Shown: piece after piece, positions 21,439-22,953 of the stretch | Position numbering within the stretch: the first letter of the stretch is position 1 | Layout of the letters: each line of letters starts with the position of its first letter | Assembly: GCA_023421955.1 (NCBI GenBank) | Contig: JAEZSE010000018.1 | Location: forward strand, 7,337 to 71,336 | DNA from: Bacillota bacterium | GTDB lineage: Bacteria > Bacillota > Clostridia > Christensenellales > UMGS416 | DNA length: 64,000 nucleotides | Direction of reading: 5' to 3' | Program-made: the position numbers and the translations under genes | The notes under the pieces: model-generated | Told to the model about the DNA's origin: nothing | The model's input: only the letters and a program-made list of their open reading frames with translations | Database searches by the model: none

Positions 21439-21723
21439 TTAACAGCAATCCCCGTCGTCGCAGCCGCAACTTGGCTCCTTACCAGTCAGCATCCCTGCGA
21501 TGATCGCCGCGGCGCAGCCGACGCCTGGCTCCACAGTGATCGCACCAAAGGCGCAATTGCGGGCGCAAGCCCCGCATTCCATGCAGCGGTCACGATCAGT
21601 GACCTGGGCCTTTTTGCCCTCCAGCCGGAAAACGCCATGGGGGCACACAGCAACGCACAGTCCGCAGCCGGTGCACTTGGAACGATCGTATTCCAGCGTC
21701 GCCACATTCTTCAAATACATCAT
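21439..21723 (-). CDS. hgcB: HgcB, 2x[4Fe-4S] ferredoxin of the mercury methylation system
   Basis: Two CxxCxxCxxxCP motifs (CTGCGLCVAVCP, CMECGACARNCA) and a C-terminal ...SCGCDDGDCC vicinal-Cys tail. Starts 12 nt after the hgcA stop. GAGGAGG RBS. Confidence 0.8.
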   Translation of the reverse strand: MMYLKNVATLEYDRSKCTGCGLCVAVCPHGVFRLEGKKAQVTDRDRCMECGACARNCAFGAITVEPGVGCAAAIIAGMLTGKEPSCGCDDGDCC

Positions 21724-21735
21724 GCAATTACCTCC

Positions 21736-22953
21736 TCAATGGAACAACACAATAAAATCCTGTACGATCAAAAGAATCACGCCAAGCGCCGTCGCAATCA
21801 GCATCAGCGGCAGCGCGATCCTCATTTCACGATCCACACCGGACATCGACGTGAAAGTGGAGCTGCCGGTGAAGTTCATCGCGCCGTAAGCCGATAAGGA
21901 CGGCAGCACCAACACATATGCAATTGCTTTCATCCAGCTCTCCAACGGCATTGGCGGCACCCAGCCCGCCAGCAGGATCACGCCCACCGCCCACAGCATG
22001 CCAACCAGCGCGCCTTTGAACGAGAATGCCCTTCCGGGGATCCATGGCAGCAGCGCCGGTGTGAGCACGCAACCGGCAAGGATTGTGCCGAGATATGCCA
22101 CAAGATCCATGAAGCCATAGTGCCCGATGCCGATTGCGTTCAGGATGAACAGCACGCCGAACACAATCATCATGGGCTTCAGCGCCATTACGACCTCCAG
22201 CGGTGCGAGCACCAGCCGATCCCACAGTGTGAAGCGGACCCTCCGCATTTCCTCTGAAGCCTTCATTCCGGCTGCCAGATATGCTTTCAAGTCCTCCGCC
22301 CGCACCGGCCCGTATGTCACTTTGAACCCTGACTGCTTGGCAACCTCGTGTGCAGCCACACCCACCGCCCCAAGCTGGGGTAGGATCAGGATCCGGTGGC
22401 TCACGACCTGCTTCAGACGCGATTCTTCGATCCTGCGCAACAACTCCTCGGTGCCAAATGTGCCCTTCCCTGCTGCGCACCACACGTTGATGCCCTTGGT
22501 ATCGAGCACCAGGATCCAGGCGTTCACATTTGTGAGCTCCTTGCGCAGCCGGTCAAAGGTCATCTTGTAGTTGGCAGTCACCAGAACCGGCGATTTGTCA
22601 TCTGGGGCTCCCACGCAATACAAACCCGGGTCCACACTGTAATCCATCCTACCAATGTTCCAGCGGGCTTTCCAGGAGCCGAGCATATCGCCAAATGCCA
22701 GCGTTGTGTGCACTCGGGGCACTGGGCCGGTTGGTGTGTCTACAGTGCCTGCAATCCATTTGTGCCGGAGTTCCGAAGCATCACAACTGCTGGCGCAAGC
22801 TTGCCCAACCGTTTGGGTATCGTTTGTAGCATTTTGCGCCGGAGCCGAGCAACAGGGTTCGTGCTTTACCGAAGCGATTGCTGCGGTAGTTTGATTGCAG
22901 TCGTAGGGCTGCTTTCTCTTTCGCGGGGAGCCGGAACAACAGGAATCGGGCAT
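21736..22953 (-). CDS. hgcA: HgcA corrinoid protein (mercury methylation) with an extra Cys-rich N-terminal extension
   Basis: Cap-helix motif TKGINVWCAAGKGTF (N(V/I)WCA(A/G)GK). C-terminal ~5 TM helices. N-terminal ~65 aa contain CC, C, CC, C..C motifs. Start chosen at MPDSCC after GAGGTG. Confidence 0.85.
   Translation of the reverse strand: MPDSCCSGSPRKRKQPYDCNQTTAAIASVKHEPCCSAPAQNATNDTQTVGQACASSCDASELRHKWIAGTVDTPTGPVPRVHTTLAFGDMLGSWKARWNIGRMDYSVDPGLYCVGAPDDKSPVLVTANYKMTFDRLRKELTNVNAWILVLDTKGINVWCAAGKGTFGTEELLRRIEESRLKQVVSHRILILPQLGAVGVAAHEVAKQSGFKVTYGPVRAEDLKAYLAAGMKASEEMRRVRFTLWDRLVLAPLEVVMALKPMMIVFGVLFILNAIGIGHYGFMDLVAYLGTILAGCVLTPALLPWIPGRAFSFKGALVGMLWAVGVILLAGWVPPMPLESWMKAIAYVLVLPSLSAYGAMNFTGSSTFTSMSGVDREMRIALPLMLIATALGVILLIVQDFIVLFH

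Follow-up and report, generated by a model that had tools for sequence, protein, structure and literature searches.

An hgcAB pair with a cysteine-rich HgcA N-terminus beside arsenic genes in a Clostridia-like Bacillota genome

The closest described systems to the locus presented here are the HgcAB pairs of Pseudodesulfovibrio mercurii ND132 and Geobacter sulfurreducens PCA (Parks et al. 2013). The locus, hgcA followed by hgcB, lies on the minus strand of a 64,000-nucleotide stretch of contig JAEZSE010000018.1 (assembly GCA_023421955.1, Bacillota bacterium), which was analysed whole and is called the window below. With ND132 and PCA it shares the motif NVWCAAGK with its cobalt-ligating Cys (C159 of the window HgcA is the counterpart of cap-helix Cys93 in ND132), a corrinoid domain of the type found in corrinoid iron-sulfur proteins (CFeSP), a five-helix membrane domain, and an adjacent ferredoxin with two [4Fe-4S] clusters, an equivalent of Cys73 (GVGC70 here) and a C-terminal CC. 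Since no genetic determinant of microbial methylmercury production other than hgcAB is known, correct hgcAB calls matter for environmental risk models.

S-adenosylmethionine is the methyl donor (Zheng et al. 2024), and the Cys residues of the HgcB tail have been described as the Hg(II) carrier, an analogy to MerA being drawn for that tail (PMC7305189). N-terminal extensions of HgcA have been described as well. According to Haft and Gwadz (10.1101/2022.07.06.499078), some HgcA homologues bear CC-containing extensions, and in ND132, GSU1440 and 18 further homologues reading on 5' across one UGA yields a conserved PCUGP; an interaction with heavy metals is proposed there for these CC/CU extensions (U, selenocysteine). 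A J Bacteriol 2023 version of that work is cited in PMC11588087, and HgcA is listed as a CU selenoprotein in a 2026 review. By the same source, the HgcA of ND132 and PCA carries a short extension with one Cys-selenocysteine (Cys-Sec) dipeptide, whereas the window HgcA has a tail of about 57 residues whose four clusters are all Cys, and its reading frame contains no TGA. The context differs too: in ND132 a dedicated arsR-like gene lies directly 5' and other ars operons are found elsewhere, whereas hgcAB of the window follows arsR-acr3-arsC.

Identity of the hgcAB pair

From profiles, motifs and modelled structure, the locus can be called a genuine, canonical two-gene hgcAB system in a Clostridia-like Bacillota chromosome, Hg(II) methylation itself being predicted. 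It adds one Clostridia-type methylator candidate and conceptually nothing new. Both proteins exceeded the equivalog cutoffs of their NCBIfam profiles, HgcA with 484.8 bits against a cutoff of 275 (NF040863, HgcA_corrinoid; profile positions 1-324 of 325 at residues 78-400) and HgcB with 132.9 bits against 99 (NF040864, HgcB_ferredoxin; residues 3-94). An earlier reading of the letters alone (the sequence-only reading) had named a CFeSP or a fused HgcAB-like protein as the alternative to HgcA. Both scored under cutoff and the assignment stands: the fused-paralog model NF043039 (HgcAB_like) gave 211.7 bits (cutoff 285), and the acetyl-CoA decarbonylase/synthase gamma-subunit model NF003195 gave 81.9 bits (cutoff 306), with the C-terminal corrinoid domain alone aligning, so the window HgcA is not a CFeSP. 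PF03599 (CdhD; residues 105-223, 59.3 bits) was the sole Pfam family found in HgcA at E<=0.01, and HgcB gave Pfam matches to the Fer4 family only.

The segment GINVWCAAGKG occupies residues 154-164 of the HgcA translation, and N156, V157, W158, C159, A161, G162 and K163 were invariant among 89 aligned homologues. AlphaFold2, run with these 89 homologues, returned a corrinoid domain followed by five long helices (residues 243-273, 281-300, 310-328, 337-364 and 370-404, with a predicted local distance difference test (pLDDT) mostly above 87); the whole protein had a pLDDT of 83.6 and a predicted template modelling score of 0.76. The top Foldseek match of this model was the published integrative HgcAB model 9a0b_A, with the CFeSP structures 2ycl, 4c1n, 2h9a, 9fzy and 4djd ranking behind it (E = 2e-6 to 1e-5). 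The closest solved sequences were CFeSP large subunits, residues 104-226 aligning to 317-439 of 2h9a (E = 1.5e-10).

HgcB possesses two CX2CX2CX3C motifs (C17-x2-C20-x2-C23-x3-C27, followed by Pro, and C47-x2-C50-x2-C53-x3-C57, followed by Ala rather than Pro); its further Cys residues are GVGC70, C85-G-C87 and the C-terminal C93C94. The hgcA stop (21736-21738) and the hgcB ATG (21723) are separated by a 12-nt spacer that contains GGAGGT. All that the sequence-only reading had described of the pair was found: a cap helix with five predicted transmembrane helices after it (about five had been noted), and, 12 nt downstream, a 94-aa two-cluster ferredoxin ending in SCGCDDGDCC; both genes lie on the minus strand. 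A protein 100% identical to the window HgcA (P0001) is present in NCBI, ENA and Logan, and an 87%-identical HgcA is encoded in GCA_023435705.1, a metagenome-assembled genome (MAG) of a relative.

The cysteine-rich N-terminus of HgcA

Ahead of the part of HgcA that the profile covers, which starts at residue 78, the protein reads MPDSCCSGSPRKRKQP. Seven Cys fall within residues 1-57 (positions 5, 6, 19, 34, 35, 53 and 57), a density of 12%, and three in the remaining 348 residues (113, 159 and 295; binomial P = 6e-7); because the Cys columns are conserved, this enrichment is no chance effect of composition. The Cys-rich segment with CC and C..C motifs that had been noticed from the letters is therefore present. 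Its spacing is CC-x12-C-x14-CC-x17-C-x3-C, and its parts are cluster 1 (C5C6), a basic patch (R11-K14), cluster 2 (C19 alone), cluster 3 (C34C35) and cluster 4 (C53-x3-C57).

In the 89-homologue alignment only the four Cys clusters, their flanking Gly/Ser and the Lys/Arg patch were conserved, and the linkers differed in length and sequence via in-frame indels. In cluster 1 (S-C-C-G-G), C5 aligned with Cys in 78/80 homologues and C6 in 77/80, and in cluster 3 the counts were 77/82 for C34 and 76/84 for C35. Cluster 2 is a CC after the basic patch in homologues (Cys in 53/73 and 44/73), and cluster 4, near residues 53-57, is CxC (52/79 and 59/80) where the window has CxxxC. Residues 1-57 had pLDDT values below 50 and no secondary structure in the AlphaFold2 model, the fold starting at about W66.

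The isolated tail matched no Pfam family at E<=10, which excludes the Fe-S, HMA (heavy-metal-associated) and metallothionein families of Pfam. No folded domain of the HMA/NmerA type with GMxCxxC was found in it, either by that search or by AlphaFold2. The N-terminal [4Fe-4S] domain of CFeSP has a CX2CX4CX16C-type spacing; the tail differs from this spacing, and no Fe-S family of Pfam was recovered. A tail-only profile built from 28 sequences found nothing at E<=1e-3 in a 5.8-billion-protein index or among 1.84 billion representatives, but this profile is too short and low in complexity to recover even HgcAs. The window protein possesses the CC form of the published CC/CU extension, with SCCSG (C5C6) and PCCSA (C34C35) before residue 78; the Cys-Sec form PCUGP is absent and the protein is of the all-Cys form.

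A wrong start or a frameshift would have made the extension an artefact. The ribosome-binding site (RBS) and start, GAGGTG-N6-ATG with the ATG at 22951-22953, are kept together with the first codons in the relatives L082 (87% identical) and L083 (81%); the N-terminus MP(D/E)SCC is common to the three species, and M-x-x-S-C-C-G-G is held across homologues down to 55% identity. The three proteins measure 405, 404 and 402 aa, their differences leave the downstream frame unaffected, and comparison with the relatives revealed no frameshift in hgcA, all indels being in frame. With RBS and ATG conserved and the frame intact, the artefact is excluded; comparison of these sequences indicates that the hgcA start is right and that the extension truly belongs to the protein and is conserved.

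Two other readings of the 5' end were rejected. An upstream ATG at 22980, which would give 414 aa, is absent from L082 and L083. A selenoprotein reading has no in-frame TGA within the 405 codons to build on; the nearest in-frame stop upstream, a TGA, has A-TGA-S-P around it instead of a Cys-Sec context and lies beyond the conserved RBS and start.

Two samples were used to judge how common the tail is. Among the 118 best cluster representatives carrying the cap-helix motif (55-87% identity to the window HgcA), 111 had at least one CC or CxC cluster in the tail and 64 had at least three, the median tail length being 59 aa. A second set of 80 species-level hgcA loci, taken from GTDB representative genomes and assembly look-ups and spanning Bacillota, Deltaproteobacteria, Aminicenantes, Planctomycetota and Treponema, among others, had at least one tail cluster in 65 cases. 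The extension had been thought less usual; being common and already in the literature, it is not, and the claim fails. To have an N-terminal tail rich in Cys (or with Cys-Sec) is normal for HgcA and no oddity, and the window HgcA is an all-Cys, four-cluster form of a known feature, typical of the Clostridia-like clade.

The extension of Haft and Gwadz resembles that of the window in its place ahead of the corrinoid domain and in a vicinal Cys-Cys (or Cys-Sec) followed by Gly, and a crowding with additional Cys is already remarked upon in that source. The CC type is there called "occasional", whereas it forms the majority in our samples, and the portion of the text available holds no specific description of a four-cluster architecture of about 60 residues with a basic patch. 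In L071, a MAG of the Deltaproteobacteria, an in-frame Cys-TGA (…TSCUPPKAK…, S-C-TGA-P-P) occurs at the equivalent place, about 18 residues ahead of the conserved F/W-x-x-G motif; the Cys-Sec extension of Haft and Gwadz is thereby recovered independently.

Arsenic genes upstream and a possible role for the tail

The genes 5' of hgcA encode arsenic functions (Table 1). L082 and L083 have the same order, arsR-acr3-arsC-hgcA-hgcB-DUF6273, with an arsC-hgcA gap of just 38 bp in L083; the arsC-like protein matches the NCBIfam arsenate reductase models under their cutoffs. Across 83 hgcA loci searched, an ArsR homologue lay within 6 kb in 46, mostly immediately upstream, ACR3 in 19 and an ArsC-like gene in 15. 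A link of hgcAB to ars genes has already been published. A consensus scan of the window found a single strong promoter-like site close to the cluster on the minus strand, 5' of arsR, and a simple pattern scan of the 260-nt arsC-hgcA spacer detected neither a sigma-70-like promoter nor a minus-strand terminator. As judged from this layout, hgcAB is probably co-transcribed with the ars genes and would form the distal end of an expression unit arsR-acr3-arsC-hgcA-hgcB under ArsR control.

Other arrangements were seen among the relatives. In L089 (ENA ERZ28598223 scaffold_61, HgcA 60% identical) a gene for a 353-aa ACR3 (2727-3788) has hgcA (1501-2712) on one side and hgcB (3785-4048) on the other, and its stop overlaps the hgcB start, an unusually tight physical tie of arsenic efflux to hgcAB. 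In L085/L086 and L088-L092 a MarR-family regulator, not ArsR, is found directly 5' of hgcA, some 24 to 290 bp away. The replacement of ArsR by MarR in this long-tail clade suggests that the regulator was swapped between lineages.

Transferred to the window proteins, the published HgcAB model of the core runs as follows. The CFeSP-type domain of HgcA holds the corrinoid, with C159 of the cap helix as lower cobalt ligand, and the five helices anchor the protein to the membrane. HgcB reduces cobalt to Co(I), and the cobalt-bound methyl group then passes to Hg(II) presented by the thiols of the HgcB tail (C70, C85, C87, C93 and C94). The HgcA tail, joined to the presumably cytoplasmic corrinoid domain, could offer free thiols in the reducing cytoplasm, acting as a flexible arm that, through ligand exchange, draws Hg(II) or a different soft metal(loid) out of thiol complexes in the cytosol. 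It would hand the metal to the HgcB tail and the methyl-corrinoid site, much as the tethered NmerA of MerA feeds a C-terminal Cys pair. The tail is probably accessory rather than essential, since tail-less HgcAs exist and a His-tagged HgcA of ND132 methylates mercury.

Judged from sequence, structure model and analogy, the tail most likely serves as a flexible, thiol-bearing arm for the capture of Hg(II) or some other soft metal. The intrinsic Hg(II)- or metal-binding module suggested by the sequence-only reading is thus plausible, and it agrees with the proposal of Haft and Gwadz. A ligand-exchange arm is favoured because the vicinal pairs are kept while the linkers vary, because Sec occurs in other lineages and because no fold is predicted. 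Taken together, the canonical hgcAB, a disordered tail as soft-metal capture arm and co-expression with ars genes form a picture to which we give a somewhat better than even chance. The likeness to MerA is one of analogy only and lies in the path from a tethered N-terminal thiol module over a vicinal Cys pair on a flexible C-terminal tail to the active site. NmerA is a folded HMA domain with GMTCxxC, whereas the HgcA tail is disordered, has CC/CxC clusters and gives no HMA match; it stands outside the NmerA family.

Several points weigh against this picture. Some lineages can do without the tail: it is wholly missing from eight Desulfosporosinus loci. In the window itself cluster 2 is degenerate, with Y17-D18-C19 where relatives have CGC or CC, and therefore strict constraint does not fall on every cluster. 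The co-transcription with ars genes is deduced solely from spacing and pattern scans, and the 260-nt spacer could hide a promoter missed by a simple scan. To our knowledge, metal binding by any HgcA N-terminal tail is without experimental demonstration. N-terminally His-tagged ND132 HgcA from E. coli still methylated mercury in lysates (PMC11588087); this construct appears to have begun at the annotated start, and thus to have been without the Sec extension.

If HgcAB were natively linked to arsenic, the tail might instead be a metalloid module in which vicinal Cys bind As(III) as in ArsD or ArsR. The position of hgcAB directly 3' of arsR-acr3-arsC in the window and two relatives speaks for this, as do the frequencies of ArsR, ACR3 and ArsC-like neighbours given above, several loci with the order arsR-hgcA-hgcB-acr3-arsC, and the ACR3 gene between hgcA and hgcB in L089. 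In ND132, hgcAB is arsenic-induced and its knockout is more sensitive to As(V) (10.1101/2022.10.17.512643). The tail also occurs at loci that have no ars neighbours, such as L088 and L092 with MarR upstream, and the tail-less Desulfosporosinus loci L013, L023 and L072 have ArsR or ArsC neighbours all the same, so the ars linkage does not follow the tail. The arsenic metallochaperone ArsD binds a soft metalloid through vicinal Cys pairs. It resembles the HgcA tail in these pairs and in its ars operon context; it is, however, a folded thioredoxin-like protein without sequence similarity to the tail, and the ArsD/ArsR motifs (CC-x4-C, CVC) were not found in the tail. We know of no role of HgcA with As(III), nor of a demonstrated arsenic substrate for HgcAB. 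On balance we consider the metalloid module unlikely.

A metallothionein-like thiol sink, which would buffer Hg(II) or methylmercury and shield the corrinoid and the Fe-S clusters, could explain a Cys content of 12% in a disordered, low-complexity segment, and a dosage-type function would allow the range from 0 to 4 or more clusters seen among lineages. Such a sink would hardly account for the conserved position and order of the clusters, the first of which lies at residues 5-6 in 78/80 homologues, and selenocysteine at the equivalent place in other lineages argues for a defined reactive site and not for buffering in bulk. With one tail on each copy of a low-abundance enzyme, the buffering capacity would moreover be negligible, and we find this explanation quite improbable.

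Binding of an Fe-S cluster or of structural Zn, for example as a substitute for the N-terminal [4Fe-4S] domain of CFeSP, is a poor candidate that we rate as very unlikely. Eight Cys in four pairs would be enough ligands, and the HgcA corrinoid domain derives from CFeSP (matches 2ycl and 2h9a), whose large subunit carries such a domain. That large subunit (AcsC/CdhE; 2h9a, 2ycl, 4djd) has a homologous corrinoid-binding domain; unlike HgcA, it lacks a membrane domain and possesses a TIM barrel as well as the N-terminal [4Fe-4S] domain. The window protein is one Cys short of the set of eight, its vicinal CC pairs are joined by variable linkers of 10-25 residues with no CxxC-type spacing, the Pfam searches gave nothing beyond CdhD in HgcA at E<=0.01 and nothing in the tail at E<=10, AlphaFold2 gave the tail no fold, and two clusters are already provided by HgcB. 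This and the notion of a neutral segment carry the most counter-evidence among the rivals. That the tail is neutral low-complexity sequence or a wrong-start annotation artefact, as poorly conserved linkers, low AlphaFold2 confidence and the lack of significant matches of the tail-only profile in 1.84 to 5.8 billion proteins might suggest, is extremely unlikely in view of an RBS and ATG kept in three species, an M-x-x-S-C-C-G-G kept down to 55% identity, and Cys columns 90-97% conserved while linkers drift and indels are all in frame.

Within the reading of the tail as a soft-metal capture arm, the HgcA poly-CC tail and the HgcB Cys tail may be halves of one substrate relay and able to trade off, an idea that we regard as doubtful. 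HgcBs of the clade whose HgcA tails are long and poly-CC are often just 87 aa (a length that holds where gene calls exist) and have lost the distal CC, ending in …EPSCG in L002, L003, L085, L089, L091 and L093 and in …EPTCC in L088, with similar ends in L090, L004 and L016. HgcBs with at most one tail Cys partnered HgcA N-tails with at least four Cys in 8/8 cases, and 0/28 partners of HgcAs with 0-3 tail Cys were shortened in this way. For Cys count, HgcA and HgcB tails gave a Spearman rho of -0.22 (p = 0.049), and for tail length one of -0.25 (p = 0.024), values that ignore phylogeny and come from a partly hand-picked sample; the trade-off is therefore a hypothesis and not a result. The window HgcB retains its full tail. 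If the idea is true, the HgcA tail can replace that of HgcB in the acquisition of Hg(II) (or As(III)), and tail architecture would be a predictor of methylation efficiency at low mercury that can be read from sequence. The embedding in ars operons, including the ACR3 insertion in L089, would then hint further at an origin of the relay in the handling of some metalloid other than mercury.

The tail lies outside the NF040863 hidden Markov model and the published model 9a0b (329 residues), and the ND132 expression constructs were apparently also without it. If it modulates substrate capture, in-vitro kinetics and predictions from gene abundance could miss a determinant. The embedding in an ars operon bears on what HgcAB evolved to do.

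Features, spacer and other genes of the window

The coordinates of the features discussed are collected in Table 1.

Table 1. Features of the hgcAB locus and its arsenic neighbourhood, in window coordinates
Feature	Coordinates	Strand	Evidence
hgcB CDS (coding sequence), 94 aa, ferredoxin with 2x[4Fe-4S] and Cys-bearing tail	21439..21723	-	NF040864, Fer4 Pfam
HgcB C-terminal tail SCGCDDGDCC (aa 85-94), vicinal Cys pair at end	21442..21471	-	sequence; identical tail in L082, L083
hgcA CDS, 405 aa, corrinoid protein with C-terminal membrane domain	21736..22953	-	NF040863, PF03599
HgcA transmembrane domain, five predicted helices (aa 243-404)	21742..22227	-	AlphaFold2, Foldseek
Cap-helix motif NVWCAAGK (aa 156-163), C159 the predicted Co-ligating Cys	22465..22488	-	
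HgcA N-terminal Cys-rich disordered tail, aa 1-57	22783..22953	-	outside NF040863 profile; pLDDT <50
arsC-hgcA spacer, 260 nt	22954..23213	-	holds palindrome and 65-nt element
RBS GAGGTG, 6 nt 5' of hgcA ATG	22960..22965	-	read from sequence; kept in L082, L083
arsC-like arsenate reductase, low-molecular-weight phosphatase family, 136 aa	23214..23624	-	PF01451 LMWPc
ACR3 arsenite efflux transporter, 352 aa	23650..24708	-	TIGR00832 acr3 390.2 bits, cutoff 282.8
ArsR-family regulator, 121 aa	24721..25086	-	PF01022 HTH_5 E = 1.1e-13
Sigma-70-like promoter TTGACA-17-TATACT, 11/12 matches, 5' of arsR	25117..25145	-	consensus scan, pattern match only
ArsP-type permease (organoarsenical efflux family), 368 aa	25738..26844	-	PF03773 ArsP_1 E = 2.2e-39; syntenic in L082, L083

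Immediately 3' of the arsC stop the spacer holds a perfect 12-bp palindrome (GTTCCTTTTGGC/GCCAAAAGGAAC; 23186-23210), which folds at -14.9 kcal/mol (z = -3.35); it is followed by no U-run and is therefore no canonical terminator. A 65-nt element (23037-23101) has a 91% identical copy in the spacer of L082, in the opposite orientation relative to hgcA, the remainder of the spacer being unalignable between the two. Imperfect 16-nt inverted repeats (23001-23016 and 23158-23173) flank the element, for which folding prediction gave nothing remarkable in the window. Apart from the copy in L082, neither the window nor the fetched loci contained a further one; a single match in a JGI metagenome, inside a glycosidase gene, was rejected as chance. 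The element may be a short segment that is inverted or can invert, or else a hairpin indifferent to orientation. Rfam was searched for RNA elements or riboswitches 5' of hgcA, by E-value over 19500-27500 and at the gathering threshold over the whole window, and tRNAs alone were returned.

Directly 3' of hgcB lies a DUF6273 gene (20801-21469, minus strand) whose longest open reading frame (ORF) overlaps the hgcB 3' end; its relatives, syntenic in L081, L082 and L083, are called at 199-200 aa from a later start. Eight tRNA genes (19889-20602, minus strand: Leu, Tyr, Thr, Phe, Asp, Met, Glu and Pro) are located 3' of the hgcAB-DUF6273 block. About 8 kb from hgcAB, a 589-aa fusion of homocysteine S-methyltransferase and methylenetetrahydrofolate reductase is encoded (12389-14158, minus strand), and the nearness of this methyl-metabolism gene may be coincidental. 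An 1808-aa ORF (30663-36089, minus strand) with six cadherin-like domains, Listeria-Bacteroides repeats and an fn3 domain probably specifies a large cell-surface protein.

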